Source: an uncultured Gemmataceae bacterium (lineage in GTDB: Bacteria; Planctomycetota; Planctomycetia; Gemmatales; Gemmataceae). From it: DNA of 64,000 nucleotides. The position numbers were made by a program, and so were the translations under genes. Each line of letters opens with the position of its first letter. Within the stretch, counting starts at the first letter, position 1. The notes below the pieces were generated by a model. It did not search any database, was not told the origin of the DNA, and worked only from the letters and a program-made list of their open reading frames with translations. Below are positions 27,498 through 63,927 of this stretch, one piece after another. Location of the stretch: NCBI GenBank assembly GCA_963701675.1, contig OY969623.1, forward strand, positions 6,450,599 through 6,514,598, written 5' to 3'.

Positions 27498-27499
27498 GT

Positions 27500-27889: not shown

Positions 27890-28002
27890 TAGCGAAAAGT
27901 CCTGTGGAGGATGATGGAAGCAAAAACGGCCTATATGCCAAATTTTTAACCGGATCGGAGGTGGTGTCAAGCCCAACGTGCCAAGATTTTGACGCCGCTG
28001 AG

Positions 28003-32905: not shown

Positions 32906-34769
32906 GTGCGATCCTTGACCGCCATACTGGGCATATCCGCCTTCTACCATGACAGTGCTGCGGCATTGGTGGTCGACGGCGACATTTTCGCCGCCGCTCA
33001 GGAAGAGCGGTTCACGCGCATCAAACACGACTCCGCATTTCCCAAATGCGCCATTCGCTATTGCCTCCGGGAAGGCGGGCTATCCCCGCGCGATCTGGAT
33101 TACATCGCCTTCTACGACAAGCCGCTGACCAAATTCGAACGGCTCCTGGAAACTTACCTGGCCTTTGCGCCCGCGGGTTTCGCAGCTTTCGGCTCGCCAT
33201 GCCGGTGTGGTTGAAGGAAAAATTGTTCACACGGCGGACTATTCGCCGCGGCTTCGACGAGCCGATGACCGCGCCCTTGGTGTTCACCGATCACCACGAA
33301 AGTCATGCCGCCAGCGCGTTCTTTCCGAGCCCGTTCGATGAAGCCGCGATTCTTACGCTCGACGGCGTCGGCGAATGGAGCACAACGACATACGGTGAGG
33401 GCCGCGGCAATCGCATCTCGCTGACTCACCATCTCTCGTTTCCGCATTCGTTGGGTCTCTTGTATTCGGCGTTCACGTATTACTGCGGCTTCCGGGTGAA
33501 CAGCGGTGAGTACAAACTGATGGGCCTCGCGCCCTATGGCCAACCGATTTATCAAGACGCGATTTACCGCCATCTCATCGATCTCAAGCCCGACGGCAGC
33601 TTCTGGCTCAACATGAAGTATTTCAACTATTGCCCGGGATTGACCATGACGAGCCGGTGCTTTCATCGGCTCTTCGGTGGTGCTCCGCGCGACCCGGAAT
33701 CGCCCATTCTGCAACGGCACATGGACCTGGCTGCCAGCATTCAGGCCGTGACGGAAGAGATCATGTTGCGCCTCGCCCGCACCGTGCATCGGCAGACGGG
33801 CATGAACAAGCTCGTGCTCGCCGGCGGCGTGGCGCTCAACTGCGTGGCGAATGGACGGTTGCTGCGCGAAGGGCCTTTCGAGTCGATTTGGATCCAGCCT
33901 GCCGCGGGAGATGCCGGCGGCGCGCTCGGGGCGGCCCTTTTCACCTGGCACCAACTTCTGAACAAGCCGCGCGGGCCGAGGTCGGACGATTCGCAAAAGG
34001 GCAGCCTCCTCGGTCCTGCATTCTCTGCCTACGAAGTCGAACAGTTCTTGCACGCCAATGAGGTCCCCCACGAGTGCTTTCAAGACGAGTCGGAACTCGT
34101 TGCTCACGCGGCCGATCTGCTGGCGGAAGGGAAAGTCGTCGGTTGGTGTCAAGGCCGGATGGAATTTGGCCCTCGAGCCCTCGGGCGCGGAGCATTCTCG
34201 GCGATCCGCGCTCGCCGAACATGCAGGCTCTCATGAACCTCAAGATCAAGTTTCGCGAGAGTTTTCGACCGTTTGCACCGTGCGTTCTGCGTGAGCATGC
34301 CGCCGACTGGTTCGATCTCAATCCGGAAAACGAAAGCCCGTACATGCTTCTGGTCGCGCAAGTCAAACCGAAGCATCACGTTCCCATCACCGTCGCGGAT
34401 CACCGCGTGATGGAACAGGACTCGGATTTGCGGAAACGAGTGAACGTCGTGCGCTCCGTGGTGCCGGCGATCACCCACGTCGATTACAGCGCCCGCCTAC
34501 AGACCGTGGACGAGGTACGAAACCCGCGCTTTCACCGCCTGCTCAGTGCATTTCATCAACGAACCGGCTGCCCGATTCTCGTGAACACGAGCTTCAACGT
34601 CCGCGGTGAACCCATCGTGTGCTCTCCGCGCGACGCATACCGATGTTTCCAGGCAACGAAAATCAATGCGTTGGTAATGGAAGATTGCGTAGTGCACAAG
34701 TCGGACTTGGAGCCAGAGAGTGCGCGCGCCGAACAAGCGGAGTATCTCGCTCAGTTTGCGTTGGATTAA
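32906..34769 (+). pseudogene. NodU/CmcH-family carbamoyltransferase interrupted by two single-nucleotide deletions (about 33200 and about 34200), or sequencing errors
   Basis: N-terminal 'ILGISAFYHDSAAALVVDGDI…AAQEERFTRIKHD'; the protein continues in the next frame ('RSFRLAMPVWLKEKLF…', '…FGPRALG|ARSILGDPRSPNMQ…') across three overlapping ORFs in frames 2, 1 and 0. Confidence 0.7.
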
Positions 34770-44804: not shown

Positions 44805-44936
44805 CTGATCGACTCCGACACGCGGGTGCCCTCAATGGCACCCGCGTTGTCGCGCGCACCATGTCACCCACTCTTCCGGATGGTTAGAATCTAAACAGGC
44901 CGGCGGATCGACTAACTTGGTGGAGTCGAGTGCCAT

Positions 44937-46151
44937 ATGTCCAGTTATTATCAATACCGATCTCCTGAACCACGGCGTCCGCGAAGCGCCACGTGGCCGG
45001 CGGTGCTACTCATCATTCTGATTGCCGTTTTGGGCGTGTTGGCACTGGATCAAGGTTTTGGTTGGCGGCTGTTTCGGCGAGCGCCGGACCTCAAGGGTTC
45101 GTTCGAACCTCGGCTAGTGGTGGCGCGGGGCGATTTTTCGTCGGATGAACAGGCCACCATCGCCGTCTACGAGCGGAATGCGCCGTCGGTTGTTCACATC
45201 AACAACCTGGCCGAGCACGAGAATTTTCTCACCTGGGATGTACAGCAAATTCCGCGGGGCTCCGGCTCCGGATTCGTCTGGGATGATAACGGGATTATCG
45301 TCACCAACGCGCACGTCGTTCAAGGGGCCGATACCGTCGAAGTCATCCTGCCGGACAAAGCGCAGACCCGCTATGTGACGCGTGACTGGGTCGCCTACCC
45401 GGACAAAGATATTGCAGTCATTTATGTCGATGCTCCCAAAGACAAGCTCCGCAAGATCCCCGCCATCGGGACATCGAGTGACTTGAAGGTTGGGCAGAAG
45501 ACGTATGCCATCGGTAATCCCTTTGGCTTGGACCAAACGCTGACGACCGGAATCGTCAGTGCGCTGAATCGTGAGATCAAGGCGGACAGTGGGCGAAGTA
45601 TCGAGAAAGTTATTCAAACCAGCGCACCAATCAATCCGGGAAACAGCGGCGGACCGCTCCTCGACGCTGAAGGCCGGGTCATCGGTGTGAATACCGCGAT
45701 ACTTAGCCCATCGGGCACCTTCGCCGGCATCGGCTTCGCCATTCCGATCGATGAGGTCAATCAGGTTGTACCGACGCTAATAGCGCGGCTCAACGAGAAC
45801 ATTCAAAACAAGTCGGGGCCTATGACCGTGCGCCCGCCCCGGCTTGGCGTCACACTGGCCCCGGAGCAATACGCTCGCAGTCAAGGTATTGACGGAGGCG
45901 CCCTCATCCTCCGGGTGGAACCACGAAGCCCGGCAGCCGAGGCAGGTCTACGTCCGACTCGACGTGATAGCAGCCGCGGCACCGTTCTTCTCGGCGACGT
46001 GATTCTTAGCATCGACGACAAGCCGGTGAAATCTCCGAGCGACATTTCCGCCATCCTTGAGGGCCGTCAATACGGCGAAAAGATCGTCGTGCAAGTGCTG
46101 CGTGGCCGACGGCAGATGGGTGTTGAAGTAACACTCACACCGTTGCGGTAG
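44937..46151 (+). CDS. HtrA/DegP-family serine protease with PDZ, membrane-anchored
   Basis: TNAHVV, GNSGGPLLD, and a C-terminal PDZ 'LGDVILSIDDKPV'. Confidence 0.8.
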   Translation: MSSYYQYRSPEPRRPRSATWPAVLLIILIAVLGVLALDQGFGWRLFRRAPDLKGSFEPRLVVARGDFSSDEQATIAVYERNAPSVVHINNLAEHENFLTWDVQQIPRGSGSGFVWDDNGIIVTNAHVVQGADTVEVILPDKAQTRYVTRDWVAYPDKDIAVIYVDAPKDKLRKIPAIGTSSDLKVGQKTYAIGNPFGLDQTLTTGIVSALNREIKADSGRSIEKVIQTSAPINPGNSGGPLLDAEGRVIGVNTAILSPSGTFAGIGFAIPIDEVNQVVPTLIARLNENIQNKSGPMTVRPPRLGVTLAPEQYARSQGIDGGALILRVEPRSPAAEAGLRPTRRDSSRGTVLLGDVILSIDDKPVKSPSDISAILEGRQYGEKIVVQVLRGRRQMGVEVTLTPLR

Positions 46152-50726: not shown

Positions 50727-53070
50727 CTAGTTTTCTGACGGTCTAGAGCCGAATTCCATCGCGAACGGGTCAAGAACCAAGTGCAGCCGCTTGATCGCCG
50801 CGGCACGTCCTGGCGGAAGGATTCGTTTGGGCGTGGCCGCGGGATCGGATTTCGCGACATCGGGTGGCGAAGTGCGAATTAGTTTTACGGCTGATCTCCG
50901 TATTCCATCCGGCTCATCCTCAAGCGGCATCGGCGGCCAGATGCCGTCGTTGAGCACGACAGCGACACCATTCTCTAGCGCGGCCACGACATCCAGCCAG
51001 CCGATATCCGCGAGTGCCACTGGTGCCTGAACGAAAGAACTGCCTGGATAGGGGAAATCACCCACGGAGAACTGACAATCATTCTTAAACGTGCCATCGC
51101 CGTTTCCTATCAAGAGGCTCACGGTGCCGCCCCAATGATTGCCCACGATCAAATCCACGTTGCCATCGCCACTGACGTCGCCGGCCGTGATCGTCCGAGA
51201 TGTATTGCCGACCGCGTAGCTAGTCGGCGCGGAAAAAGTCCCGTCGCCATTACCGGAGAGTACGCGAACACTACCGACGTTAGAATCGCTTGTAACGGCC
51301 AGATCGAGGTCACCGTCTCCATCAAAGTCTTCCGTCACCAAATCGTAGAGAGACGATCCGGCTGCGAAGCCGGCCGCCGGCTGAAACGTGCCGTTACCGT
51401 TCCCCAGGAGAATACTTATCGTGCCGGCAACCTTGTTCCCGGTGGCGAGGTCTGGTTTGCCGTCGGCGTCGAAGTCCCCGATCCCCACACTGCGGGGCTC
51501 GTTGCCCGTGTCGAACGTGAGACCCGAACCAAACGTCCCGTCGCCAATTCCCAGCAGAATTTGCACCGAATCGCCGACGCTATCGGCGATGACAAAATCC
51601 AAGTCGCCATCGCTATCAACATCAGCGGTGGCGATAGCGAAAATCGTGTTACCACCGGAAGGATAGCTGACGAAAGGCTTGAACGTCCCGTCACCGTTGC
51701 CGAGGGCGACGCGTACCGTCTCCTCGAAGTTTAATCCGACCGCAACATCGAGGGCCCCGTCACCGTTGAAATCTCCTGATGTGAATCCTCGTGTACCACT
51801 CCCGATGAGGTAGGACCGCGATTTCTCGAAGGTCGCATTTCCCACGCCAAGCATTACCGTCAGATACCCGGGGCCACCGTTGTTGCCTTCCGACAATATC
51901 AAATCGACTTCACCATCTCCGTTGAGGTCCGATGGAGCGATCCCCCAAGGGTGTTTGGGAGCGGCGGAAATCAGCCATTCAGTGAACACCCCTCCGCCAA
52001 GCCCGATCTGAAACGTCACAGTCCCGCCGGTGGTCACATTGTTGGCGATGGCGATGTCCGGCACTCCGTCGCCGGTGTAATCGCGAATCGCCGCGCCGCT
52101 GACGCCGGTGCCGGCAATGTACGGCCCCGCGGTCTGGAACGACCCGTCCCCGTATCCCAGGTTCAGGTGGAATTGCTCTGGACCCAACGCAATAAAGTCG
52201 AGTTTACCATCTTGATCGAGGTCCTCCGTGTCTATCAAGTGCACACTGGTTCCGGCGGAATACACTCCTGCGATTTGGAATGTGCCGTCGCCATTGCCCA
52301 AGCGCACGATCACTGTTCCATCAGTATTGGCAACTGCCAGGTCGGGGTTGAAGTCAGCGTTGTAGTCGGCGACGGAAACATCGTTCGGGGTTCCTTCGTT
52401 GTACTGCGCCGAACCAGAACGTGCCGTCGCCATTACTCAAAAGGATGGCCGTCTTGGGTGCGGAACTGAAGTTGCCTACGGTGACGATGTCGTAGAGGCC
52501 GTCGCTGTTGAAATCGCCGGTCGATACCGCCCGCATTTTTGTGCCCATGTCGTAGCTGACCGTATTTTGGAAGGCGCCGCCGCCCAGACCGGTGAGAACG
52601 GTAACATTTCCGAGGTCGTAGTTGGCCACGACTAAATCAATGATTCCATCGACGTTGAAGTCTGAATACCCTACGGAAGTGGGATTCGCTCCGGCCTCGA
52701 AAGTCATTGGTCGACGAAACAACCCGGTGGCCGATCCACGGAGCACGGCGATCTCATCGTTGGGCCCTGAGTAATTATCGTTCGTCACCACCAGATCGAG
52801 CCGGCCATCGCCGCTAACGTCGACCGCGACCAATGACGTCGGGTTATTGCCGCCGGTTGGAAAGCTCTTCGGTGCTCCGAACGTGCCGTTGCCGGCGTTC
52901 AGCATAATGCTGATGGAGCCCGGCTTGGTTTGATTGGTCACGACGATGTCGTAGAGCCCATCGCCGTTGAAATCGTCGCTCACGACGTCTGATGGCGACG
53001 CACCCACCAAGATCGCCTGCGGCGCGGCGAAGCTCGGCACATCCCGGCGTTCGAGGGCTTCCAGGGTCAA
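50727..53070 (-). pseudogene. FG-GAP/VCBS-repeat beta-propeller protein, paralogue 1, split by a +1 frameshift near 52400-52420 (or a sequencing error)
   Basis: N-terminal 'MTLEALERRDVPSF'; repeating '…LGNGDGTF…DFNGDG.LDL…' units; overlapping ORFs 52354-53070 and 50727-52433 join into one continuous FG-GAP repeat. Confidence 0.7.
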
Positions 53071-53141
53071 CCGGCGATAGCGGTTAGTCTGAGAGTTTTG
53101 CGACTCATGACAACCTCTCCTCCTAGCAAAGCGTCTTGGGA

Positions 53142-56100
53142 CTATGTCATTTCAATCGAAAGTACATCACCAAGCGGATCGTGTCCGGCGGCAATTGCGT
53201 ATCGCACGGCGGGACGTATGCGGTGAGCGTGGGCTCCGGGTTTCGCCGTGTCGTCAACGGTTGCCAACCGGTGAATTCGAGGATTCGATTCGACCGTGTG
53301 CGTTGTCGATTTGTCTGGCTTCGTAAATGCCGATGCGGCGAGCATTCGGACGTCCGCCCCCGGCCCGTCGCTGATCGGCAGCGGCGGCCAGTCGGCGGCG
53401 TTAAATAGGATCGCCATGCTAATTTCGTTGACGGCTGCGATGTCGACGAAACCGTCGCCGTTGAAGTCGCCGACGGTCAAGTCGAGTCCTTTCGCCAACA
53501 CCGCATACACGAGCGGCGCTTTGAACGTCGCGTCCCCATTACCCAAAATGATGCTTACGGCGCTCGGCGCTACAACGGCGAAGTCGAACTTTCCGTCGCC
53601 GTTAAAATCCGCCGTTACGATTCCCGCTACAGTACCCGTACCGGTGGTGATGACAATTGGGACCTGAAAAGTGCCGTCGCCGTTGCCAAGCAGCAATCGC
53701 ACGGTGCCTGGACTGACGTCATTCGTTACCGTTACGTCGGTGTTGCCGTCGGCGTTGAAGTCGCCGGTTGCGAGGAATTCCGGTTTCGTCCCCGCTGGAA
53801 ATGCCGTCGACGATTGGAACGTGCCGTCGCCGTTGCCGAGAAGAACGCTGATCGTTCCACCATCATAATTGGCAGACACGATGTCCAGAATGCCGTCATT
53901 ACTTACATCGGTGACGGCCACATAGAGCGGTAGTTTGCCGACTGCATACCCTTGCACGGAAGGATAAACACCGCCGCCACCTGAGGCGAGGAGCACTTCG
54001 ACTGTCGGTGGATTCGTTTGAGGACTGCTCGATGCCAAGTCAAACAAACCATCGCTGTTGAAATCGCCGCCGGCTGTCAATCCACCTTCATAGACGGCCG
54101 GTCCGGGGAAAGAGCCGTCCTGCTCATTGAGCAAAACATGGGCGCCAATGTTGCCGACACCCACAATGTCGCGAAAGAGATCACCATTGAAGTCCGCGAC
54201 GGCAACGGACGAAATCGCCGAGCCCAAAACATAGCGAGACGGAATCCCAAAAGTTCCATCGCCATTCCCGAATCGAACCGCGGTTATCGATTCTAAGACC
54301 GTTACGAGATCGAGTATTCCGTCCTCGTTCAGGTCATCGATCGCCAGGCTAGCCGGCTCAGCGTACACGTCGGGCGCGGCTACGAACGTCCCGTCTCCGT
54401 TTCCGAGACGTACGCACAGTAACGGGCACGCGATGCTGACAATGTCCTGAAATCCGTCATTGTTGACGTCTGCGACATCGACATCCGGTCTCGGAGCGCC
54501 GACTGCTACCAGCGTGGCGGCACTGAATGTCCCATTGCCGTTACCCAAGAATAAATGCAGTCCGTAATTGGGATAGGTCCCCCCGTTGGCAACGAGATCT
54601 GCTTTGCCATCGCTGTTGAAATCGCCGCCGGCTAGCGCCAGTGGCTGGTAAATCGAGGTGTTAATCGACATACCAAACGTGCCGGCGCCCAGGTTCAGTA
54701 ACACGCGAATTCCATTACTCGTGGCCAGCCCCAGATCGAGTTTGCCATCACCGTTGTAGTCGTCGGCGACAATTCCCACGCCGGTGCCGCCGCTGTTATA
54801 GCCGACCGCCGGTTCGAAAGAACCGTCGCCGTTCCCGAGCAGAACGCTGGCAGTCGAGCCGGCGGCCGCTACATCGAGGAACCCATCGCCATTCAAGTCG
54901 GCAACCGCAACCGCACTGGGCGTCGTCACCACAGCCACAGTGCTCGGCGGACGGAAGGAGCCGTCGCCGTTCCCCAATAATATGCTGACGTTCGCGGCGC
55001 CTCCGACGTTGTTGGGCACGACCATATCCAGGATTCCGTCCTGGTTGAAGTCGCCCAGAGCGACATCGTCCGGTTTCGGCCCTGCGTTATAAAGCGGCGC
55101 TTGAAAGTATCCCGAGGGGCCGCCGAGATGGATCGTGGCGTAGTAACGTCCGACGGCATAATCTTGGAATCCATCGTTATTCAAGTCGTGCACGATGACG
55201 TCGCCGCCACCTTCGGACTGTATGCTGGTGCCGGCGGAAAAGGCGCCGTTCCCGAGCCCGTTGAAAGTCAGGATGTGCGACGTCCACAACGAGCTGAGGA
55301 TGATGTCGACGGAGTAGAGCACGGTCAGGTCCAAAATGCCATCGACATCAACGTCGTGCGCGGTAATGCCATTGGCGTCGCCCCCGGTGGGCATGGAATA
55401 AATGGGGAGCGCGCTTAGAGCACCGCCGCCGGTACCGAGAAGGATTGTTGCCGAGTCGCTCGCACGATTCGATGTAGCGACATCCGGAAGACCATCGCCG
55501 TTAACATCTGCCACGGCGACGGCGACTGGGATGTCACCAACGGAATAGCTGACGCGGCGGCGCAAAGAACCGAGTTGATTTCGCAACACCGTAATCGTGC
55601 TCGCCGTGTTGCCGACGATGATGTCGACATCCCCGTCGCCATCCATGTCCGCGCCGGTGATGGAATTCGGCTTGGTGCCCGCCGGGTATGTCTTCGGTGG
55701 CAAGAACGTGCCGTCGCCGTTACCGCGCAAAACGTCGATCGTGTCGCTGTTGTTGTTCGTCAAGACGATGTCGAAATGGCCATCCCCGTGAAGTTCGGTG
55801 ACAACCAGAGATCCGAAGCCGTTTCCGATCCAAGTGGGTGGCTGAAACGAACCGTCGCCGTTACCGATCATGATCTGCAACGCACCGCCAACGGCGAGGT
55901 CCGGGATACCATCCGAATTAAAGTCCGCGGCAGCGACAGCGATGGGACTGGAGGAAACGGCGTAGCCGGTAAAGTGAAACGTACCGTCGCCGTTATTAAG
56001 GAGCACCACCAGGCCGCCATTGAAGGCATCATTGGTTACGGCCAGATCAATGTCTCCATCCGCATCGAAGTCATCGAGCGCCAGTCCCGCCGAATGGAAA

Positions 56101-56510
56101 CCAGCTCCAATCTTTACCACAGTCTGGAATGTCCCGTCGCCGTTGCCGAGATTGATGGATACTTCACCGTGTTGATAGAGGGTCGCAACCACATCAAGCC
56201 GGCCGTCGCCGTTCATATCCGCCACACCGACCGACTGTGGATCGCCTCCGACGGGATAGTTTGTTGCCGACTGAAATACGCCACCGCCCTGGCCCAAAAG
56301 GATGCTTATGGTGTCTGCGGGGCTGTACATCTTGTCGTTAGCGGTCACGATGTCCACATTGCCGTCGCTGTTGAAATCAGCCATGGCAATCGATCTGGGT
56401 TCATCGCCCGTCGGCACCAGCAGCGGCGCGAAGAAACTCAATAGATCGCGGCGTTCGAGCGGTTCCAGAATCAAGGGTCGTTGCCAATTCTTGTTCACGA
56501 GCCGACTCAT
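53142..56510 (-). CDS. giant FG-GAP/VCBS-repeat protein, paralogue 2 (1122 aa)
   Basis: N-terminal 'LILEPLERRDLLSFF'; more than 20 FG-GAP units; C-terminal 'NAADWPPLPISDGPG…SIEMT'. Confidence 0.8.
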   Translation of the reverse strand: MSRLVNKNWQRPLILEPLERRDLLSFFAPLLVPTGDEPRSIAMADFNSDGNVDIVTANDKMYSPADTISILLGQGGGVFQSATNYPVGGDPQSVGVADMNGDGRLDVVATLYQHGEVSINLGNGDGTFQTVVKIGAGFHSAGLALDDFDADGDIDLAVTNDAFNGGLVVLLNNGDGTFHFTGYAVSSSPIAVAAADFNSDGIPDLAVGGALQIMIGNGDGSFQPPTWIGNGFGSLVVTELHGDGHFDIVLTNNNSDTIDVLRGNGDGTFLPPKTYPAGTKPNSITGADMDGDGDVDIIVGNTASTITVLRNQLGSLRRRVSYSVGDIPVAVAVADVNGDGLPDVATSNRASDSATILLGTGGGALSALPIYSMPTGGDANGITAHDVDVDGILDLTVLYSVDIILSSLWTSHILTFNGLGNGAFSAGTSIQSEGGGDVIVHDLNNDGFQDYAVGRYYATIHLGGPSGYFQAPLYNAGPKPDDVALGDFNQDGILDMVVPNNVGGAANVSILLGNGDGSFRPPSTVAVVTTPSAVAVADLNGDGFLDVAAAGSTASVLLGNGDGSFEPAVGYNSGGTGVGIVADDYNGDGKLDLGLATSNGIRVLLNLGAGTFGMSINTSIYQPLALAGGDFNSDGKADLVANGGTYPNYGLHLFLGNGNGTFSAATLVAVGAPRPDVDVADVNNDGFQDIVSIACPLLCVRLGNGDGTFVAAPDVYAEPASLAIDDLNEDGILDLVTVLESITAVRFGNGDGTFGIPSRYVLGSAISSVAVADFNGDLFRDIVGVGNIGAHVLLNEQDGSFPGPAVYEGGLTAGGDFNSDGLFDLASSSPQTNPPTVEVLLASGGGGVYPSVQGYAVGKLPLYVAVTDVSNDGILDIVSANYDGGTISVLLGNGDGTFQSSTAFPAGTKPEFLATGDFNADGNTDVTVTNDVSPGTVRLLLGNGDGTFQVPIVITTGTGTVAGIVTADFNGDGKFDFAVVAPSAVSIILGNGDATFKAPLVYAVLAKGLDLTVGDFNGDGFVDIAAVNEISMAILFNAADWPPLPISDGPGADVRMLAASAFTKPDKSTTHTVESNPRIHRLATVDDTAKPGAHAHRIRPAVRYAIAAGHDPLGDVLSIEMT

Positions 56511-56619
56511 GGGTTCACTCCTCCTTCACCCGTCTCGGAGCAGCGTGGAAGTGACGTTGCCGTCCGCGCCGCTCTGAGAGCGGCGGCTAAACAAATCTCG
56601 AGTCAATCGCAATGGTCCG

Positions 56620-59600
56620 TTACTCCAACTCTGTCGCAAACCAATCAAACGCAGGGTCAGTCGTTGCAACCAGTGCAACACGGCCGATGTGGCGAGGGGC
56701 AATCTTCAGGCGGGGCGGAATGGCCGGGATATCCGCAGATGCGGACATTGCGCGCTTGAAAGTTTGCCCTTCGGTACGGGTCGGCTGCGGGTTCGAGGCG
56801 ATGTCGCCGACGTCCGGCGGCTCAAACGCCCCCGGCCCGTCGCCGATCGGCAGCGGGGGCCAGTCGGCGGCGTTGAGTAGCACCGTCACGCCTTCCCGGC
56901 TGCCGGCCGCGATGTCGAGCCAGCCATCGCTGTTGAAATCGGAAACAAGGATGGCCGCCGGGTTGAAACCGGAAACGTAAGTCAGCGGCGATTGCAGGGT
57001 GCCGTCGCCGTTGCCGATCAAGACTTGAATCTTGCCTGCGATGACGTTGTTGACCACGGCCATGTCGGGAGTGCCGTCGTTGTTGAAATCACCGGTGACA
57101 ACCGCGGATGGACTGGCGCCGACTGCGATGGTTTGCGGCGCCTCGAATGTGAAGTTGGTCTTGGCGAGCAGGACGTGGACGTTGCCGGTCGACGCATCCC
57201 CCGAAGTGACGATCAGGTCAAGGCGGCCATCGCCGTTCATGTCGGCCGCAGTGATGGACAATAGATTCGGGGCGACGGCGACTGTCAGCGGTCGGCGGAA
57301 TTGGCCAGCGCCGTTGCCGCGCCACACGGTGATAGTGCCGCTGCCTTTGTTGGCGACGGCGAAGTCAAGGTTGGCGTCGCCGTTGAAATGCCCGATCACG
57401 ATATCGACGGGATTGGCGCCGACCGCCTTGACGACCGGCGCTGCGAAGGTGCCGTTGCCGTTGCCGAGCAGGATGCTCGTAGTACCCGCAGCTTGGTTGT
57501 TCGTGACCGCAAGGTCTAGGATGCCGTCCGCGTTGAAGTCCGCGCCGGCAACGGAGGATTGCGAGGCGCCGCCCGCGAATGCGATATGGGTCGCAAAGAC
57601 CCCGCCGGTGTTCAAAACCACATGGATTTGGTTCGGATTAAGGTCGGATAGCACCAGGTCGAGAAAACTGTCGTTGTTGAGGTCCGCCGTTGTGAGCTGC
57701 CAAAGCGGCTCGCCTGGAATCATGTACTTTTGGGGTGGCATATAAGTCGCGTCGCCGTTGCCGCGGAAGACCTTTATCGTAACCGGAACGGAGTTCCCGG
57801 ATCCCAAATCCACTGCCGCCAGATCAGCATGACCATCATGATCGAAATCGCCGATGACCACGTTTCGCACGTCATCGAATTGAGGAATGAAGATTGCCGC
57901 CTGAAAGGTGCCGTCGCCGTTATTGATCAAGAGCACCACGTTTTCCGGATCGCCGCTGGAGCTGGCCATCGCCAAGTCCGGGAATCCATCTTCATTGAGA
58001 TCGCCAGCCGTGATTGACTGTGGATTGGTCCCAGCGGGATAGCTGGTCTGCGCCTGGAAGGTGCCGTCCCCATTACTTAGAAACACACTCACCGAATTAG
58101 CCGAGTGGTTTCCGGTGGCGACATCCGGGCTGCCGTCGCCGTTGAAGTCCGCCGAGGTAGCCTGAAAGGCCCCGGCATCAGCCGCGTAAGCCACGAAAGG
58201 CATGAATGTCCCATCGCCATTGCCCAAGAGCACACTCATGAAGCCGGAGCTGCAAGCGGCCGCAATGTCGACGTTGCCGTCGCCGTTCCAATCTCCGGTG
58301 GTCACGTGGCCGGTCCCAGTCGCTGCGGCAAAGGTAACTCTGGGCAAGAAGGTGCCGTCGCCGGCGTTCAGCAAAACGCTCACGGCGCCGAACCCGTTGC
58401 CTGCAACAATATCCGGATAATCGTCCCCATTGAAATCGCCGGAAGCGAGTTCACGCCCGCCCGTGTTGTAGATGGCGGGCGCCGCAAGCGTTCCATTACC
58501 GACCCCAAAATAGACGGCCGCGTTGTTGGCACCCGCAACCGCGACGTCCGCGATTCCGTCTTGATTGAAGTCGGCCACGATCGGTGAAGCAATATTGCCG
58601 ACATCCGGATCATAACTTTTGGAGGTCAGCAGGCCGGAGCCACCGCCTAACAATACAGTGCCGAGCCCATCGGGCACGTCGTGAACGGTGGCCACGTCCG
58701 GTCGGCCGTCCCCGCTAAGATCGCCGCCAGCTAGCGATGTGCCAAAACCCCGAGTCACGTAATTTGTCGGCGCCCCGAAGCCACCGGCTATCTCTCCTGG
58801 AAGGACCTGTACGTCGTTCAGCCGACCGATGACGAGATCCTTCAATCCATCCGCTGTGTAGTCGTCGAACAGCATCCCGGCCAGACTGTGACCGGAGACA
58901 TATGAGTGAGCGGCGCGGAATGTACCGTCGCCTAAGCCCAGCATGATGTTTGCCGACCCGGCGTAGTTGTCCGCGACGGCGACGTCCAACGCGCCGTCCG
59001 CATTAAAGTCGGCCAGGGCCAGGCCGCGAGGCGAACTGCCGGCGACATAACTTACCGCAGGCTGGAATGTGCCGTCGCCGTTGCCGAGTCGAACGGTCAC
59101 GCTTTGTTTGTTCTCATTCGCCACCATGAAATCCAGGTTGCCGTCGTTGTCGAAGTCGTCAGCCGCGATGGTAGCCGCATTACTCCCCGCGATAAAGTGG
59201 GTGGCCGGTTGAAACGTGCCCGTGCCCGTGCCGCGGAACAGACTGACAAGCGATGGTTGAAATACGTTGGCAGCCACAAGGTCCAGGTTGCCGTCGTTGT
59301 CGAAATCCCCCGATGCGACCGACGAGACAGCCGACGACGTCGCGTAGCTCACGGGACTTGCGAACGCACCACCACCGGTGCCGATCAGAACGTTTACTTG
59401 CGACGCATAATTCCCCACGACCAGATCGGCGATGCCATCCTCGTTCCAATCATCCACCGCCACGGCATCCGGAAAAGTGCCGGCGGCGTAATCCGTCCGC
59501 GGTTTGAAAGTGCCGTCTCCACGGCCGAGGAACACACTGATCGAATCGCTGAAGCGATTGACCGTCACTAAGTCCGTAATCGTGTCGCCGTCTAGATCGG

Positions 59601-60051
59601 CTGTCGCTACCGCGCGAGGCGTGTCGCCTGAGCCATAACTGACCGCGAGCGAAAACGAACCGTCACCGTTGCCCAGTAGGACGCGAACAAGATCCGAGCC
59701 TTCGTTCGTCACCGCGAGATCGAGTTTCGCGTCGCCGTTGAAATCGGCAATGGCGATGCTGTTGGGATCGGTCCCGGCGCTGTAGTCGGTCTTCGGAGTA
59801 AACGAACCGTTGCCGTCACCCAATAGAATGCTCACCGTACTTCCAACGAAGTTGGCGATGGCAAGGTCCGGCGCACCATCGGTATCGAAATCGGCGACAG
59901 CCACCGCACGGGCCTCAACCCCGGCCGTATGTGATGTTGCGCCGAAGAAACTCGGCACGTCGCGACGTTCCAATGCTTCCAAGAATAGCCGCTGTGTCCG
60001 GAACACTTTCGCGAGTCGAGAAATGCTGCGAGTCACCTGAAAGTCCTCCAT
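56620..60051 (-). CDS. giant FG-GAP/VCBS-repeat protein, paralogue 3 (1143 aa)
   Basis: N-terminal 'LFLEALERRDVPSFF'; FG-GAP units; C-terminal 'NAADWPPLPIGDGPG…FATELE'. Confidence 0.8.
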   Translation of the reverse strand: MEDFQVTRSISRLAKVFRTQRLFLEALERRDVPSFFGATSHTAGVEARAVAVADFDTDGAPDLAIANFVGSTVSILLGDGNGSFTPKTDYSAGTDPNSIAIADFNGDAKLDLAVTNEGSDLVRVLLGNGDGSFSLAVSYGSGDTPRAVATADLDGDTITDLVTVNRFSDSISVFLGRGDGTFKPRTDYAAGTFPDAVAVDDWNEDGIADLVVGNYASQVNVLIGTGGGAFASPVSYATSSAVSSVASGDFDNDGNLDLVAANVFQPSLVSLFRGTGTGTFQPATHFIAGSNAATIAADDFDNDGNLDFMVANENKQSVTVRLGNGDGTFQPAVSYVAGSSPRGLALADFNADGALDVAVADNYAGSANIMLGLGDGTFRAAHSYVSGHSLAGMLFDDYTADGLKDLVIGRLNDVQVLPGEIAGGFGAPTNYVTRGFGTSLAGGDLSGDGRPDVATVHDVPDGLGTVLLGGGSGLLTSKSYDPDVGNIASPIVADFNQDGIADVAVAGANNAAVYFGVGNGTLAAPAIYNTGGRELASGDFNGDDYPDIVAGNGFGAVSVLLNAGDGTFLPRVTFAAATGTGHVTTGDWNGDGNVDIAAACSSGFMSVLLGNGDGTFMPFVAYAADAGAFQATSADFNGDGSPDVATGNHSANSVSVFLSNGDGTFQAQTSYPAGTNPQSITAGDLNEDGFPDLAMASSSGDPENVVLLINNGDGTFQAAIFIPQFDDVRNVVIGDFDHDGHADLAAVDLGSGNSVPVTIKVFRGNGDATYMPPQKYMIPGEPLWQLTTADLNNDSFLDLVLSDLNPNQIHVVLNTGGVFATHIAFAGGASQSSVAGADFNADGILDLAVTNNQAAGTTSILLGNGNGTFAAPVVKAVGANPVDIVIGHFNGDANLDFAVANKGSGTITVWRGNGAGQFRRPLTVAVAPNLLSITAADMNGDGRLDLIVTSGDASTGNVHVLLAKTNFTFEAPQTIAVGASPSAVVTGDFNNDGTPDMAVVNNVIAGKIQVLIGNGDGTLQSPLTYVSGFNPAAILVSDFNSDGWLDIAAGSREGVTVLLNAADWPPLPIGDGPGAFEPPDVGDIASNPQPTRTEGQTFKRAMSASADIPAIPPRLKIAPRHIGRVALVATTDPAFDWFATELE

Positions 60052-60097
60052 TTAGGTTGATGCTTAGTCGCCGTTCTGCGAGCGGCGGCTAAGCCAA

Positions 60098-62464
60098 TTA
60101 GGTCAACTCCGTCGAAAACAAATCCAACGCCCGATCAATCGTTTCAGGATGCGCGATGCGGGCAATATGGCGCGATGCGTAAGTCGTTCGGGGCGTAATC
60201 ACTGCTTCGTGCACGCCTACGGCGCGGTGGTGAACTGTCGGTGTCGTCTCGAGCCGCGTTGGATTGAGGACTGTATCGCCGACAAGGGGTGGCGTGGACG
60301 GCCGCGGCCCGTCGTCGATCGGCAGCGGCGGCCAGTCGGCGGCATTTAGCATAATTGCGATCTTGCCAATGTAGGCGCCGCTGTAGTTACTCGTGGCCAC
60401 GACATCGGGGAACGCATCACCGTTGAAATCAGCGATTGCCAGGTCGTCGCTGTCGGGTTGATACGTTATTCCTGCCTGGAACGTCCCGTCGCCCTTTCCG
60501 AGGAACACGATAGTCCCCGATGCACCGGCAACGGCTAGATCTACGGCGCCGTCCAAATTGAAGTCGGCGACGGTGATTTCAAGCGGATCTTTGCCGGCGG
60601 CGTAACTGACGGGCTGTTGGTATTGGCCGTTTCCGATGCCCAGAACAATACTGATCGTGCCGGACGTCATCCAATTGGCGACGACAAAATCAATGTTGCC
60701 ATCCCGATTGAGGTCCGAAGCCATCATGGAGCGCGGTGAAGGGCCGGCATTATAAACACTCGGCATGTTACCGAATGTGCCATCGCCGCCTCCCCACAGC
60801 ACATGGAATGTCGAAAAAGTATAATGGCTAGTCACAACATCCAAGAAGCCATCGCCGTTGGCGTCCTGTGCCAAAACGCTATTCGGATTATTTTCCGTCG
60901 GATATCTCACTTGAGGCTTGAACGTGCCATTCCCGTTGCCCAACAGCACGCTCACGTCGTCACTGTCACTGTTTGACGTGGCCACATCCAGGCTACCGTC
61001 GCCGTTAAAATCAGCCACCGCGATCGCGTTGGGCCAGTTGCCCACGCTGAATTCGGTCCTTGGTCTCAACGTGCCGTCGCCGTTGCCTAAGAATAGGCTG
61101 ACTTTCGCTATCTCCGTGTTCGCAATCACTACGTCGAGGACGGCATCGCCATCAAAATCCGCCACTTGCAAATCGGTTGGACTGTTTCCCGGCGCGTATG
61201 ATACGGGGGACATGAGAATGCCGCCGGCTTGTGCGATGAAGACGTATAACAGGTCGTTTGAGCGGTCGGACACAATCAGGTCGCTGTCGCCGTCGCCGTC
61301 CATATCAGCGGCGGCGACGTCTTCCGGCGCCTCAACCACGGCGGTGGACGCGATGGCGGCGAAGGCACCGGCGGTTAGCGTACGCAGGACGGTTACGGTG
61401 TTATCACCGGAGTTGGCAGTAACTACGTCTTCCTTGCCATCGCCGTCAACGTCAGCAGTCGTCGCCGCCGCCGGTCTCTGACCGACCACGTAGGCTTCAC
61501 CGATTCGGAAAGTTCCGTCGCCGTTACCCAGCAACAACCCCATAGTGCCGGGATAGGTCCAATCGAAATTACTGACCGTCACATCTTGGTTGCCGTCAGC
61601 GTTGAAGTCGCTCATCGCGATGCAAACGGGTTCCTCGTCAACGAGCGTGGTGAGCGCCGGCTGAAACGTGCCATCGCCATTGCCTAACAAGGTGCTCAGT
61701 GTGGCGGTGTCTTCGTTGGGTACGGCGAAGTCGGGAATCGCGTCGTTGTTGAAGTCTCCGATTTGCAAGGCCGACGCGTATCCATTGGTTGCAAAAGAAG
61801 TCGGAGCGCCAAACGTGCCGTTGCCGTTATTCAACGACACCGTCACATGCTTGAAAAAGGTATTGGCTACGACCAGATCGGGGTGACCGTCATCGTTGAA
61901 ATCCGCAGCCGTTATGAATTCCGGACCGGCGCCGACCGGTAGGCTGCCTGACAGTTGTAATTGGCCGGAACCTTGGTTCAAAAGGATGCTGATGGTCCCG
62001 TAATCGTCTGCCGTGGCGACATCCAAATCGCCGTCGCCGTCAAGATCTGCTCCAGTTACGGCACTCGTGCCTAGGCCGGCTGCGAAGCTGACGGGACGTC
62101 GGAACACACCGGTCCCGGATCCCCGCAACAAGCTAACATTGTTGGTGCCGGAGTTGGCCACGACGACATCGACTTTACCGTCGCCGGTGAAATCACCGAG
62201 CGCGAGCGAAGTTGGATCGTTGCCACCCGTCAAAAAACCCTTCGGGGCTGAGTAGGCGCCGCCTGTATTCAGCAGTACGCTTACTGCACCCGGTTTGGAC
62301 TTGTGGGTCACGATTAGATCGCTGAGCCCGTCGCCATTCACGTCGGCCGCCGCCAGCGCGGAAGGCGATAGCCCGATGGGGAAGGCGGGCGCGGTGACGA
62401 AGCTCGGCAGGCCCCGCCGTTCTAAGGCTTCCAAAGCCAATCGTCTGCTGCGAACGCGAGTCAT
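60098..62464 (-). CDS. FG-GAP/VCBS-repeat protein, paralogue 4 (788 aa)
   Basis: N-terminal 'LALEALERRGLPSF'; FG-GAP units; C-terminal 'NAADWPPLPIDDGPR…FSTELT'. Confidence 0.8.
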   Translation of the reverse strand: MTRVRSRRLALEALERRGLPSFVTAPAFPIGLSPSALAAADVNGDGLSDLIVTHKSKPGAVSVLLNTGGAYSAPKGFLTGGNDPTSLALGDFTGDGKVDVVVANSGTNNVSLLRGSGTGVFRRPVSFAAGLGTSAVTGADLDGDGDLDVATADDYGTISILLNQGSGQLQLSGSLPVGAGPEFITAADFNDDGHPDLVVANTFFKHVTVSLNNGNGTFGAPTSFATNGYASALQIGDFNNDAIPDFAVPNEDTATLSTLLGNGDGTFQPALTTLVDEEPVCIAMSDFNADGNQDVTVSNFDWTYPGTMGLLLGNGDGTFRIGEAYVVGQRPAAATTADVDGDGKEDVVTANSGDNTVTVLRTLTAGAFAAIASTAVVEAPEDVAAADMDGDGDSDLIVSDRSNDLLYVFIAQAGGILMSPVSYAPGNSPTDLQVADFDGDAVLDVVIANTEIAKVSLFLGNGDGTLRPRTEFSVGNWPNAIAVADFNGDGSLDVATSNSDSDDVSVLLGNGNGTFKPQVRYPTENNPNSVLAQDANGDGFLDVVTSHYTFSTFHVLWGGGDGTFGNMPSVYNAGPSPRSMMASDLNRDGNIDFVVANWMTSGTISIVLGIGNGQYQQPVSYAAGKDPLEITVADFNLDGAVDLAVAGASGTIVFLGKGDGTFQAGITYQPDSDDLAIADFNGDAFPDVVATSNYSGAYIGKIAIMLNAADWPPLPIDDGPRPSTPPLVGDTVLNPTRLETTPTVHHRAVGVHEAVITPRTTYASRHIARIAHPETIDRALDLFSTELT

Positions 62465-62490: not shown

Positions 62491-63927
62491 GAGATATTCT
62501 CGAATGATGGGTTCTAGTTGAGAGGGAAAAGGCGGCGTATCCTGCTGGTGATTTGGATTTACTTCATCAGCTGACCCAACGAGGATACGCCATGAACGAG
62601 ACTACGGCATTCAGTATTGAAAAACCAGAGGTTGGTTCCGTGGATCTGGAAGTGGCCCACTTCCGCGAGCGATTCGAAGGGCGCCGGCTTCTCGATGAGG
62701 TGGTCCACCACGGCGCTCAGCAGATGCTCCAAAAGGCCATTGAGGCCGAGGTCCAGGAGTTTCTCCAGGAGCACCATGGGCGGCGCGATGGCAGAGGTAA
62801 TCGCCTGGTCGTTGGCAACGGTCGCAAGCCGACGCGCAAGATCGTGACCGGCGCCGGCGTGTTGGAGATTCAGCAGCCACGCGTGCGGGACAACTCGCCG
62901 AACCGGGACGAGCGGGTGCAGTTCAGCTCGGCACTGTTGCCTCCGTACCTTCGGCGCAGCAAAGCGATCGAGGAGTTCATTCCCTGGCTTTACCTCAAAG
63001 GGATTTCCACGGGAGATTTTTCGGAGGTGCTCCAGTCGCTGTTGGGCGAATCTGCCAAGGGGCTGAGTCCGAATGTGATCGTTCGTCTCAAGGAACAGTG
63101 GACCACGGAGTACGACGAATGGAATCGGCGTGACCTCAGCGGCAAATCGTACGTCTACATTTGGGCCGATGGCATCTACGTCAACGTGCGCCTCGAAGAC
63201 ACGGAAAAAAAGCGGCAGTGCATGCTGGTGCTCATGGGCGCGACTGCGGACGGTCACAAAGAACTGATCGCGGTCATGGATGGCTATCGCGAGAGCGAGC
63301 AGAGTTGGTATGAGCTGCTCGTCGATCTGAAGCAACGTGGGTTAACGCTGACCCCGCAGTTGGCGACGGGTGATGGCGCCTTGGGATTCTGGGCGGCCCT
63401 TCGCAAGGTATATCCGGAGACACGGGAACAACGTTGCTGGGTGCACAAGACGGCCAATGTTCTCAACAAGATGCCCCGGAGTGTGCAGCCCCGAGCCAAG
63501 GCTGATCTCCATGAAATCTGGTTGGCGGAGACGCGGGAAGCGGCCAACCAAGCGTTCGACAAGTTCCTCGCCAAATATCAGGCGAAGTACGAAGAAGCCT
63601 GGGAATGCTTGCGGAAGGACCGTGAGGTGTTGTTGGCCTTCTACGACTTCCCGGCGGAGCACTGGAAACATCTGCGAACGACGAATCCGATCGAATCGAC
63701 ATTCGCGACGATTCGTCTTCGCCACCGAAGAACGAAAGGGAGCGGTACGCGGAAAACGAGCTTAGCGATGATGTTCAAGTTGGCCCAGGCCGCTCAAAAG
63801 CGATGGCGACGGCTCAATGGCCATGAGCACCTGGCACCGCTTCTTCAAGGAAAGATTTTTGTCGACGGAGTATTGCAGGAAGCCGCCTGATCCCGGATTC
63901 CTGGAACCCAAGATTTGACAATATCTC
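62491..63927 (+). mobile_element. IS256-family insertion sequence (about 1.44 kb) with imperfect terminal inverted repeats and a 9-bp target-site duplication GAGCGGCGA
   Basis: IRL gagatattctcgaatgatgggttc (62491-62514) against the reverse complement of IRR gagatattgtcaaatcttgggttc (63903-63927); direct repeats at 62482-62490 and 63928-63936. Confidence 0.75.
62592..63890 (+). CDS. IS256-family (mutator-type) transposase
   Basis: '…YVYIWADGIY…CMLVLMGATADGHKELIAV…QRCWVHKTANVLNKMP…' matches the Transposase_mut DDE signature blocks. Confidence 0.85.
   Translation: MNETTAFSIEKPEVGSVDLEVAHFRERFEGRRLLDEVVHHGAQQMLQKAIEAEVQEFLQEHHGRRDGRGNRLVVGNGRKPTRKIVTGAGVLEIQQPRVRDNSPNRDERVQFSSALLPPYLRRSKAIEEFIPWLYLKGISTGDFSEVLQSLLGESAKGLSPNVIVRLKEQWTTEYDEWNRRDLSGKSYVYIWADGIYVNVRLEDTEKKRQCMLVLMGATADGHKELIAVMDGYRESEQSWYELLVDLKQRGLTLTPQLATGDGALGFWAALRKVYPETREQRCWVHKTANVLNKMPRSVQPRAKADLHEIWLAETREAANQAFDKFLAKYQAKYEEAWECLRKDREVLLAFYDFPAEHWKHLRTTNPIESTFATIRLRHRRTKGSGTRKTSLAMMFKLAQAAQKRWRRLNGHEHLAPLLQGKIFVDGVLQEAA

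Follow-up and report, generated by a model that had tools for sequence, protein, structure and literature searches.

FG-GAP propeller genes in tandem with a PF07595-type N-terminal motif and a family-specific C-terminal tail, probably from a Gemmataceae-type planctomycete

Four neighbouring genes for large FG-GAP repeat proteins share short sequences at both ends and have no classical signal peptide, which raises the question of how the proteins might reach the cell surface and what the shared ends are for. The genes lie in a 64-kb stretch of DNA (64,000 nucleotides, here called the window), and the host is probably a planctomycete of the Gemmataceae type.

Four FG-GAP genes on the minus strand

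Open reading frames and Pfam matches confirm four consecutive FG-GAP genes, arranged head-to-tail on the minus strand between positions 50727 and 62464, with a transposase gene beside them:

60098..62464, minus strand: g4, intact FG-GAP ORF, 788 aa, ~14 blades (two propellers)
56620..60051, minus strand: g3, intact FG-GAP ORF, 1143 aa from the ATG, ~21 blades (three propellers)
53142..56510, minus strand: g2, intact FG-GAP ORF, 1122 aa, the database protein P0001
50727..53108, minus strand: g1, disrupted FG-GAP copy, ~780 codons, degenerate tail
62553..63890, plus strand: IS256/Mutator-family transposase (Pfam Transposase_mut, E 5.7e-66), flanking the array and divergent from g4

The sequence-only reading had described four giant proteins of 788-1143 aa; the genes are as described, but their products, at 780-1143 aa, are large rather than giant. 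FG-GAP_3 units were found by Pfam in all four genes, with 9-20 per protein and E values of 1e-32 to 1e-145 (g3, 20 stretches, E 1.7e-145; g4, 14 stretches, E 7.7e-102). Each protein strings together two or three seven-bladed FG-GAP propellers in tandem, between disordered N- and C-terminal extensions. The tandem propellers match those of the DDB1/SF3B3 type, and residues 30-705 of g4 are modelled by AlphaFold as beta-propeller with a pLDDT of about 80-93. Proteins of this family have a pI of 4.05-4.09, 1-2 cysteines and 10-19 DxNxDG calcium-type loops, and are without a Sec signal.

The ATG of g4 is preceded by the ribosome-binding site GAAAGGAAG. Translation of g3 probably begins at a GTG at 60036 rather than at the ATG, giving a protein of 1138 aa, since GGAGGA precedes the GTG and the resulting N-terminus (MTRSISRLAK..) aligns with that of paralogue P0005. 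The product of g2 is identical to P0001 (100% across 1122 aa). A frameshift near 52415 splits g1 into ORFs at 52354-53070 and 50727-52433, and its 5' end holds a second disruption: the ATG at 53108, which has AGGAGG as its ribosome-binding site, and the motif at 53070 are in different frames. These two frameshifts rule out g1 as an intact ORF, and it is either a decaying copy or carries assembly errors. Frameshifts also occur in unrelated genes of the window.

The N-terminal motif

As had been noticed from the letters alone, all four genes carry LE[AP]LERR[DG][VL][PL]SF close to the N-terminus in place of a signal peptide (LxLExLERR(D/G)x(P/L)SF in 4/4 array proteins):

62399..62440, minus strand: g4, LALEALERRGLPSF, preceded by MTRVRSRR and fitting the Tuwongella consensus LxLExLExRxxP
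59947..59988, minus strand: g3, LFLEALERRDVPSF
56433..56474, minus strand: g2, LILEPLERRDLLSF
53029..53070, minus strand: g1, LTLEALERRDVPSF, without an in-frame start codon or basic segment upstream

Six-frame translation placed the pattern in no other N-terminal context. In the N-terminal extension a basic stretch leads into LxLExLERRDVPSF, and the extension borders directly on the first blade. The possibility that re-annotated starts would uncover a classical signal peptide can be dismissed, because in-frame stops 19-43 codons upstream of the motif make a hidden one impossible; within the first 70 residues there is no hydrophobic signal peptide either, the highest 15-residue hydropathy being only 0.6-1.2.

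This motif had been thought uncharacterised, which is not so. The only Pfam match at the N-termini is PF07595, "Planctomycete extracellular" (Planc_extracel; Studholme, Fuerst & Bateman 2004), with every score under the gathering threshold (19.5 bits, E 7.6e-4, for g2 and 12.3 bits for g4, against a gathering score of 25.5). Published consensus forms are RRLxxExLExRxLLA in Rhodopirellula and LxLExLExRxxP in 52 Tuwongella proteins (PMC8567305). Judged by sequence, the array motif is the Gemmataceae-type form of PF07595, already catalogued. Proteomics detected 20 of the 52 Tuwongella proteins, eight of these 20 only in the SDS-soluble fraction, and the authors read the motif carriers as cell-surface proteins (PMC8567305); that the motif brings about export is no more than an inference in published work.

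A lipase-like gene elsewhere in the window (6134-8274, split by a frameshift) had also been credited with the motif. Support for this is wanting: the gene gives no PF07595 score at E<=1, reaches 2.1 bits with the family's N-terminal HMM and does not match the tail HMM. All that it has in common with the family is LENRCLPS and a terminal DPLALDL; neither motif is convincingly shared.

The C-terminal tail and its distribution

At the other end, g2, g3 and g4 have NAADWPPLPI(S/G/D)DGP and g1 has the degenerate form NDGIWPPMPLEDEP, and the tails that follow have ..RHI.R.A...D..D.F.TEL. in common. The complete tail opens with an invariant NAADWPPLPIGDGP, a proline-rich stop that follows the final propeller strand; next comes a Pro/Thr/Ser-rich spacer, variable and 35-60 residues long, and then ~28 conserved closing residues (consensus ..SRHIARVA..ETTD..D.FSTELT), the end always falling 1-2 residues past (E/K)L:

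60305..60346, minus strand: g4 C-terminal motif 1, NAADWPPLPIDDGP, directly after the last propeller strand, exact match to the 27-nt core
56833..56874, minus strand: g3 C-terminal motif 1, NAADWPPLPIGDGP
53361..53402, minus strand: g2 C-terminal motif 1, NAADWPPLPISDGP
50910..50951, minus strand: g1 degenerate C-terminal motif 1, NDGIWPPMPLEDEP
60098..60184, minus strand: g4 terminal peptide TYASRHIARIAHPETIDRALDLFSTELT and stop (C-terminal motif 2)
56620..56706, minus strand: g3 terminal peptide KIAPRHIGRVALVATTDPAFDWFATELE and stop
53142..53228, minus strand: g2 terminal peptide AHRIRPAVRYAIAAGHDPLGDVLSIEMT and stop, a divergent subtype common to g2 and P0012

The tail HMM scores g1 at 27 bits versus 94-117 bits for g2-g4, and the 27-nt DNA core of the motif has three matches in the window versus none expected by chance. 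AlphaFold predicts both termini to be disordered: pLDDT is below 50 from residue 708 of g4 onwards and 25-39 for the tail in two models, one of them from a 13-sequence alignment, and in the g3 terminal peptide a strand (IGRV) and a helix (DWFAT) are suggested at low confidence. The last 110 residues contain no transmembrane helix (highest 19-residue hydropathy 0.7-1.4), and the tail has none of the features of sortase- or exosortase-type anchors (motif, transmembrane helix, basic cluster). No match to it was found in Pfam, NCBIfam or PDB. The proposal of a shared, uncharacterised C-terminal module is borne out, the module being real and previously undescribed.

When a tail profile was searched against 1.84 billion (1.84e9) representative proteins, 26 matches were returned, every one ending an FG-GAP protein; 22 came from the window's own genome and four from metagenomes. 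Both g1 and g2 are on the same 8,725,057-bp contig (8.7-Mb genome) as the 22. Four further paralogues were found separately, and the genome holds about 29 tail-bearing gene ends (at least 29 copies), 16 of which are N-terminally truncated ORFs. P0020, P0036 and P0042 have aberrant ends, though they are called as full-length genes. Both termini are present in 12 of 12 intact members and are conserved far beyond the repeat body, as had been claimed: identity is 71-79% in the motif blocks versus 36.5% over whole proteins, the propeller bodies sharing only about 36%. A relative in another genome (contig GC 70%) has both RVELLERRDVPSF and NAADWPPLPIGGG in different codons, which points to selection at the protein level.

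The idea that the tail is a sorting module shared by diverse clients fails on these matches, as all 26 are FG-GAP proteins of one family; on this evidence the tail is family-specific, not a general sorting module. It occurs almost nowhere outside the window's genome. The suspicion that the motifs are confined to recently duplicated paralogues is nearly right for the tail as to confinement, but the duplications are old and at least one other organism is included.

Proposed export and retention, and known systems

On balance, we think it probable that the array belongs to a lineage-specific, anciently expanded family of exported, envelope-associated, calcium-binding multi-propeller planctomycete proteins, for which the N-terminal motif would direct export. 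Homologues in Acidobacteria (31-40% identity) start with a classical Sec signal peptide, contain Ig-like domains and have a transmembrane segment at the C-terminus, indicating that the propeller body is generic and normally extracytoplasmic. In the array family the N-terminal motif stands where FG-GAP equivalents of other phyla have the Sec signal peptide, and it would direct export to the cell surface by a planctomycete route. More tentatively, the tail may serve as a linear handle that is recognised by its free C-terminus, neither a folded domain nor a membrane anchor; as spacer plus docking peptide it could retain or position the propellers on the envelope, or pass them to a processing enzyme. 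No gene for a secretion system, sortase-like enzyme or protease adjoins the array or the GC-70% relative. The N-terminal export motif was already known; the C-terminal tail is undescribed, and the family is a lineage-specific variation on a familiar type of planctomycete surface protein.

The sequence picture would be the same if the tail were a T1SS-type secretion signal or served purely as a structural cap. In the first case, with the tail as an uncleaved signal and the N-terminal motif serving retention or processing, a single passage via ABC transporter, membrane-fusion protein and outer-membrane channel would take the proteins out of the cell, to fold there as they bind calcium. An acidic, cysteine-poor, Sec-less make-up with calcium loops is typical of T1SS substrates, VCBS/FG-GAP adhesins are known T1SS cargo, and the family combines this make-up with a conserved peptide that follows a disordered stretch, lies in the last ~30 residues and keeps a constant distance to the free C-terminus. 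We nevertheless regard this as unlikely: RTX nonapeptide repeats and T1SS-related Pfam or NCBIfam matches are absent, the 64-kb window and the surroundings of the GC-70% relative contain no ABC transporter, HlyD or TolC gene, and acidity and low cysteine are general to FG-GAP repeats, including homologues with Sec signals. PF07595-type proteins of other planctomycetes moreover have unrelated C-termini, leaving the N-terminal motif as the feature common across families. It is less likely still that the tail has no sorting role, NAADWPPLPIGDGP capping the last blade and the remainder being a disordered appendage kept by descent and gene conversion. The motif does directly replace the GNGDGTF turn of the last repeat, g2-g4 agree at the synonymous sites of its 27-nt core, as local gene conversion would leave them, and the aberrant ends of P0020, P0036 and P0042 fit as well. 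However, the terminal peptide is conserved among bodies ~36% identical while its synonymous sites differ freely, which implies selection on the protein; other organisms keep the tail too, and in the AlphaFold models the WPPLP segment is not packed against the propeller.

That the 3' block is a recombination site, at which bodies and tails, silent truncated copies included, are swapped to vary the surface, seems improbable. The many truncated copies, the tandem arrangement beside an IS256-family transposase and the identity of 10 of 12 degenerate codons in the block across three genes, versus 24% elsewhere, would suit such a system. Conservation at the DNA level is nonetheless restricted to one short block of about 27-48 nt, and the 5' motif is not so conserved, so cassette replacement would lack paired flanks. 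The window copies are all direct repeats, the truncated ORFs may be mere frameshifts like those in unrelated window genes, the GC-70% relative uses different codons, and no recombinase or reverse transcriptase gene was found near the array. Cytoplasmic proteins whose terminal motifs serve assembly or regulation would explain the lack of a classical signal peptide or transmembrane segment, but we give this very little credence. Calcium-dependent FG-GAP propellers are typically extracytoplasmic, homologous bodies elsewhere have Sec signals, and the Tuwongella motif proteins, eight of which turned up in the SDS-soluble fraction alone, were read by their authors as surface proteins (PMC8567305).

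Our preferred reading, that of exported, envelope-associated propeller proteins, can be set beside several known systems. Like LPXTG/sortase, PEP-CTERM/exosortase, GlyGly-CTERM/rhombosortase and T9SS signals, the tail is conserved, strictly C-terminal, placed after a Pro/Thr-rich spacer and carried by many paralogous surface proteins of one genome. Unlike them, it lacks a hydrophobic helix and a terminal basic cluster, matches no Pfam or NCBIfam sorting-domain model even at E<=10, is predicted to be disordered rather than a beta-sandwich, and occurs on one body type in all carriers. T1SS adhesins and RTX proteins of the LapA or HlyA type are acidic, cysteine-poor and Sec-less, with calcium-binding repeats; they have an N-terminal module of their own and, among their last ~50 residues, a conserved peptide. 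The array family resembles them in acidity, scarcity of cysteine, calcium-binding repeats, absence of a Sec signal, conserved terminal peptide and distinct N-terminal module, but RTX GGxGxD repeats are absent, the window contains no linked genes for an ABC transporter or membrane-fusion protein, and the N-terminal module of the family is only ~25 residues long, not a folded retention domain.

FG-GAP/VCBS proteins of Acidobacteria, Pirellulales and others (for example P0029 and P0031) have the same repeat body at 31-40% identity, with tandem seven-bladed propellers and DxNxDG calcium loops. They differ in their Ig-like (PF16640) domains and at both ends, where they have a classical Sec signal peptide and a C-terminal transmembrane segment and lack the LERRDVPSF start and the NAADWPPLPI tail. 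The closest likeness in the N-terminal region is to PF07595 proteins, which are likewise large, repeat-rich, inferred surface proteins with a basic stretch and LxLExLExRxx(P/L) in the first ~35 residues and no hydrophobic core; exact matches to the Tuwongella consensus are seen in g1, g3 and g4, and the Rhodopirellula-type ..RxLL form in g2. The best score remains 19.5 bits against a gathering score of 25.5, the Pfam model being Rhodopirellula-seeded, and compared with the PF07595 set the motif of the array family is much more rigid (M-T-R-R...R-L-x-L-E-x-L-E-R-R-D-V-P-S-F) and always paired with one tail.

The FG-GAP array and its surroundings

Four consecutive minus-strand FG-GAP genes had been read from the sequence at 50727-62464, and this array was borne out by the ORFs and by Pfam. 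The genes and the neighbouring transposase are as follows:

60098-62464, minus strand: g4, ORF of 788 aa
56620-60051, minus strand: g3, ORF of 1143 aa
53142-56510, minus strand: g2, ORF of 1122 aa
50727-53108, minus strand: g1, split gene (ORFs 52354-53070 and 50727-52433)
62553-63890, plus strand: IS256/Mutator-family transposase (Transposase_mut, E 5.7e-66), divergent, 88 nt upstream of g4

All four encode FG-GAP/VCBS repeat proteins (PF13517, PF01839) above the Pfam gathering thresholds, with 4-20 PF13517 stretches per ORF scoring 110-474 bits against a cut-off of 26.9. The ORFs consist almost wholly of FG-GAP units, and the repeat period of ~147-150 nt is detectable in the DNA of the array. 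The proteins have a pI of ~4.05-4.09, 1-2 cysteines and 10-19 DxNxDG loops, and hydropathy analysis found no transmembrane-grade segment in them. The start of g3 is probably the GTG at 60036, yielding the family-typical MTRSISRLAK.., while g1 is damaged twice, by a frameshift near 52415 and at its ATG (53108, with an AGGAGG ribosome-binding site), whose frame differs from that of the N-terminal motif. The array borders on obg, coaX and mnmE at one end and on the IS256-family transposase at the other; a promoter and terminator scan was uninformative.

Motif-to-motif spacing in the array is 3472 nt twice, and stop-to-stop spacing (53142/56620/60098) is 3478 nt twice, despite the length difference between g3 and g2. 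Tandem duplication with either exact period was rejected, as gapless identity at these offsets is ~31%, no higher than at other offsets, and the exact spacings are probably coincidence. A diversity-generating retroelement or shufflon was also rejected: the spacers are too diverged, a reverse transcriptase or recombinase is absent nearby, and the repeats are all direct.

The FG-GAP bodies are predicted to adopt a beta-propeller fold. AlphaFold places four-stranded blades over residues 30-705 of g4 (modelled at full length) and in the last ~370 propeller residues of g3 (last 450 residues, 13-sequence alignment), at a pLDDT of 80-96 in both models; the Foldseek matches are all to tandem propellers of a generic kind, DDB1 and SF3B3 among them. 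The pLDDT is 25-39 in the N-terminal 27 residues and in all residues past the last strand, with no more than weak signs of a strand at HIGRV and of a helix at DWFATE; neither folding of the tail nor its docking on the propeller is supported by the two runs. At the two ends of the body, ..DVPSF stands in for the GDGTF turn of the repeat and ..VLLNAADW for ..VLLGNGDGTF, so that both signals join the fold without a linker.

Three genes in the 64 kb are split by frameshifts: a hydrolase-like gene (6134-8274, plus strand), a carbamoyltransferase (32953-34769, plus strand), whose break falls at Carbam_trans_C model position 26, and the twice-broken g1 (50727-53108, minus strand). These are either assembly indel errors or widespread pseudogenes, and they bear on the reading of the 16 truncated family members in the protein database. 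Elsewhere in the window, a c-di-GMP-I-GGC riboswitch aptamer at 16774-16857 on the plus strand (Rfam RF03167, 79.9 bits; gathering score 59) precedes a PQQ_2/BamB-like beta-propeller gene (17056-18396) by ~200 nt. At 24962-28252 on the minus strand, the gene for a BlaI-type repressor (Penicillinase_R) is clustered with those for a BlaR1 M56 peptidase that carries a fused CtpB N-terminal-like domain and for a PDZ-containing S41 C-terminal-processing peptidase; trypsin-PDZ proteases of the HtrA-like kind are encoded twice, at 20567-21613 and 44916-46151. Free C-termini are what PDZ proteases read. There are also two Ser/Thr protein kinases and a cytochrome P450 (2691-6092 and 8944-10362, plus strand; 21818-23254, minus strand), one kinase being fused to a long region that is WD40-like beta-propeller by eye. 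Kinases and a P450 of this sort are typical of Gemmataceae-like planctomycetes, and the kinase-WD40 fusion, a 3-keto-disaccharide hydrolase, the PF07595-type motif and its xxPS variant appear to fit Gemmataceae.

A PF07595-type motif at the N-terminus

The sequence-only reading held that these proteins lack a classical signal peptide and carry an uncharacterised N-terminal signal instead. The former holds: the first 70 residues of g1-g4 contain no hydrophobic core (top 15-residue hydropathy 0.6-1.2), and the first 30 combine low hydropathy with a net charge of +2 to +4. In each gene the frame is closed by a stop 19-43 codons before the motif, ruling out a hidden upstream signal peptide that re-annotated starts might have revealed. 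As for the signal itself, it is already known and named.

A published PF07595-type consensus is present in the N-terminal ~40 residues of g1-g4, preceded by basic residues and lacking a hydrophobic core. LALEALERRGLP, LFLEALERRDVP and LTLEALERRDVP match the Tuwongella form LxLExLExRxxP, to which the motifs of g1, g3 and g4 are an exact fit, and the g2 motif LILEPLERRDLL matches the Rhodopirellula form RRLxxExLExRxLL (..RxLL). PF07595 is the sole Pfam family matched by these N-termini, always under its gathering score of 25.5 bits (g2 19.5, g1 12.7, g4 12.3, and 12.8 in the paralogue P0005; g3 gave no match); the seed of that model is the Rhodopirellula form.

The Rhodopirellula consensus RRLxxExLExRxLLA, credited to Studholme et al. 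2004 and Pfam PF07595, has been described as a putative novel N-terminal export signal (PMC8567305). In Tuwongella immobilis LxLExLExRxxP occurs in 52 proteins, including 8 of the 10 longest; 20 of the 52 were detected by proteomics, 8 of them solely in the SDS-soluble fraction, and the set was interpreted by the authors as cell-surface proteins (PMC8567305). Another paper handles PF07595 simply as a signal-peptide family, and no mechanistic work on the motif was found in the searchable literature. Only the likeness to the Tuwongella proteome suggests that members of the present family may be exported or surface-located.

A lipase-like gene (6134-8274, plus strand) had been tied to the array by its N-terminal motif. 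Its product resembles alpha/beta hydrolases and has a GHSRG elbow, the gene being broken by a frameshift, and the proposed motif is weak: the gene reaches just 2.1 bits with the N-terminal HMM of the family, has no Pfam match and none to PF07595 at E<=1, and is not matched by the tail HMM, so that its place as a client is unsupported. A six-frame regex scan of the window found [LVIM]E.[LVIM]E.R in N-terminal context in g1-g4 only.

The C-terminal tail and its distribution

The shared C-terminal module aligns as NAADWPPLPIGDGP(R/G)(P/A), followed by 35-60 variable residues rich in Pro, Thr and Ser, and then by (P)RPKY.SRHIARVA..ETT(D/E)...D(L/V)(F/L)S(T/M)(E/K)L(T/S) and the stop. An exhaustive search of 1.84 billion cluster representatives with a profile of the window's four tails (E<=1e-3) gave 26 matches, all of them to FG-GAP proteins and at their very C-terminal end. 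Twenty-two are on one 8,725,057-bp NCBI/ENA contig and the other four on metagenome contigs. The former contig carries g2, which is identical to P0001, as well as the 3' part of g1 (P0002), and is therefore the window's own genome; a full-length search added four paralogues on the same contig. In all, 29 tail-bearing called ORFs were counted from this genome: 12 intact, 16 N-terminally truncated, and g1. The M(T)RR..RLxLExLERRDVPSF start is also present in every one of the 12 intact members.

Other searches with the tail were negative. A word-indexed search with the g3 tail gave no match, the exhaustive profile search being required; [LF]N[AD][AG][DI]WPP[LM] in GTDB species genomes gave a chance match only, to an Oligoflexales membrane hydroxylase; the tail motif was not found in JGI metagenome DNA, scanned twice; and Pfam, NCBIfam and PDB sequences gave no match, even at permissive thresholds. 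The tail occurs in the window's genome and a few metagenomic relatives, and is absent elsewhere among ~15 billion proteins. The module claimed from the sequence alone is real, undescribed and private to one lineage-specific paralogue family; it is not a general sorting or anchoring module, as all 26 matches are FG-GAP proteins.

One relative lies on a 70%-GC metagenome contig (L002, ENA ERZ25039586 contig_47680), where a fragmented FG-GAP gene begins ..RSLRVELLERRDVPSF and ends ..LLNAADWPPLPIGGG.. plus tail, with synonymous codons that differ from those of the window. This gene (L002 6603-7091 and 3550-7091) is broken into at least five ORFs, and its tail-motif region uses the AT-rich codons GCT, TTG, ATA and GGA, unusual for that contig.

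The family is defined by its termini, not by its body. Among its members identity reaches 79% in the N-terminal 14-mer and 71% in the C-terminal 16-mer, against a whole-protein identity among intact paralogues of 36.5% on average (range 32-55%), which indicates that the duplications are old and that both termini are under purifying selection. Paralogues are no closer to one another than to FG-GAP/VCBS proteins of Acidobacteria, Pirellulales and other groups (31-40% identity), which number in the thousands.

Within the tail, conservation extends to the DNA:

53373-53399, 56845-56871 and 60317-60343, minus strand: 27-nt blocks inside NAADWPPLPI, in genes with bodies ~35% identical at the protein level

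The core GCCGCCGACTGGCCGCCGCTGCCGATC matches at 27/27 positions in g2 and g4 and at 26/27 in g3. Ten of the 12 degenerate codons of the motif are the same in g2-g4, where codon usage predicts ~2 by chance, compared with 24% at other identical-residue columns. Synonymous sites are conserved in this block only and vary freely in the N-terminal motif and the terminal peptide; the L002 relative has other codons at the block. RNA structure was rejected, folding z-scores being an unremarkable -0.3 to -0.6. Local gene conversion might account for this, as might a constraint on the codons of the polyproline.

Export readings and known secretion systems

The sequence-only reading was thus largely correct as an observation and half right as an interpretation: the N-terminal signal is known, and the C-terminal module is new and lineage-private. 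The best supported reading is that these proteins would be exported, envelope-associated, calcium-binding propellers, in which the PF07595-type motif would replace a Sec signal peptide and a family-private tail, predicted to be disordered, carries two conserved linear motifs. We infer that the tail may consist of a spacer and a terminal recognition peptide read via the free C-terminus, for retention, docking or processing.

The main rival is a C-terminal secretion signal like that of type I secretion systems (T1SS). The tail does lie at the extreme C-terminus with its last ~28 residues conserved, and the acidic pI (~4.05-4.09), 1-2 cysteines and lack of a hydrophobic N-region or Sec signal agree with such a route; however, this composition is unspecific, as Sec-dependent FG-GAP homologues are composed similarly. 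RTX nonapeptide repeats are absent, with no RTX/HemolysinCabind match in Pfam or NCBIfam, and no linked ABC transporter, membrane-fusion protein or outer-membrane factor was found in the scanned ORFs of the 64-kb window or of the 17 kb around the L002 relative. No secretion or sortase-like gene was seen within the 64-kb window either. A bolder proposal starts from the rigid pairing of MTRR..RLxLExLERRDVPSF with the tail in ~29 otherwise diverged propeller proteins, and takes it as a dedicated two-signal export-and-retention pathway, with a nucleic-acid-level function of the WPPLPI block besides; we regard the two together as quite unlikely. The pathway could be T1SS-like or an otherwise unknown planctomycete secretion route, in which secretion or docking would be signalled by the free C-terminal peptide, and processing or retention would take place at the PF07595 motif, while the synonymous conservation could mark a site of recombination or, at the polyproline, a programmed pause in translation. 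If true, the family would be a genetic handle on how PF07595-type proteins cross the planctomycete envelope.

The PF07595 motif has been catalogued since 2004 and is present on most of the largest planctomycete proteins, and the present family offers a compact, highly paralogous set of ~29 copies whose bodies are alike only in the repeat consensus and whose termini are near-invariant. Diverged bodies with near-invariant termini make the set a clean natural experiment, suited to delimiting the minimal signal, to terminomics and to phylogenetic profiling of the machinery. That a conserved C-terminal module can be family-private, and not a general sorting tag, calls for caution in motif-based prediction of secretion clients.

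Known C-terminal sorting signals differ from this tail. Sortase, exosortase and type IX secretion system (T9SS)-type signals were rejected, as there is no transmembrane helix, basic cluster or folded C-terminal domain. No sortase, exosortase or rhombosortase signature was found, the last 110 residues having no hydrophobic stretch (top 19-residue hydropathy 0.7-1.4); the family ends acidic or polar, ..FSTELT, and the NCBIfam and Pfam sorting-signal models gave zero matches to the tail at E<=10. Related FG-GAP/VCBS proteins of Acidobacteria, Pirellulales and others differ from the present family in that they begin with a classical Sec signal peptide, contain Ig-like domains and have a transmembrane segment at the C-terminus. 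The T9SS C-terminal domain is a folded beta-sandwich of ~80 residues (TIGR04183/PF18962-type), whereas the tail matches no such model and is predicted at a pLDDT of 25-39 with almost no secondary structure.
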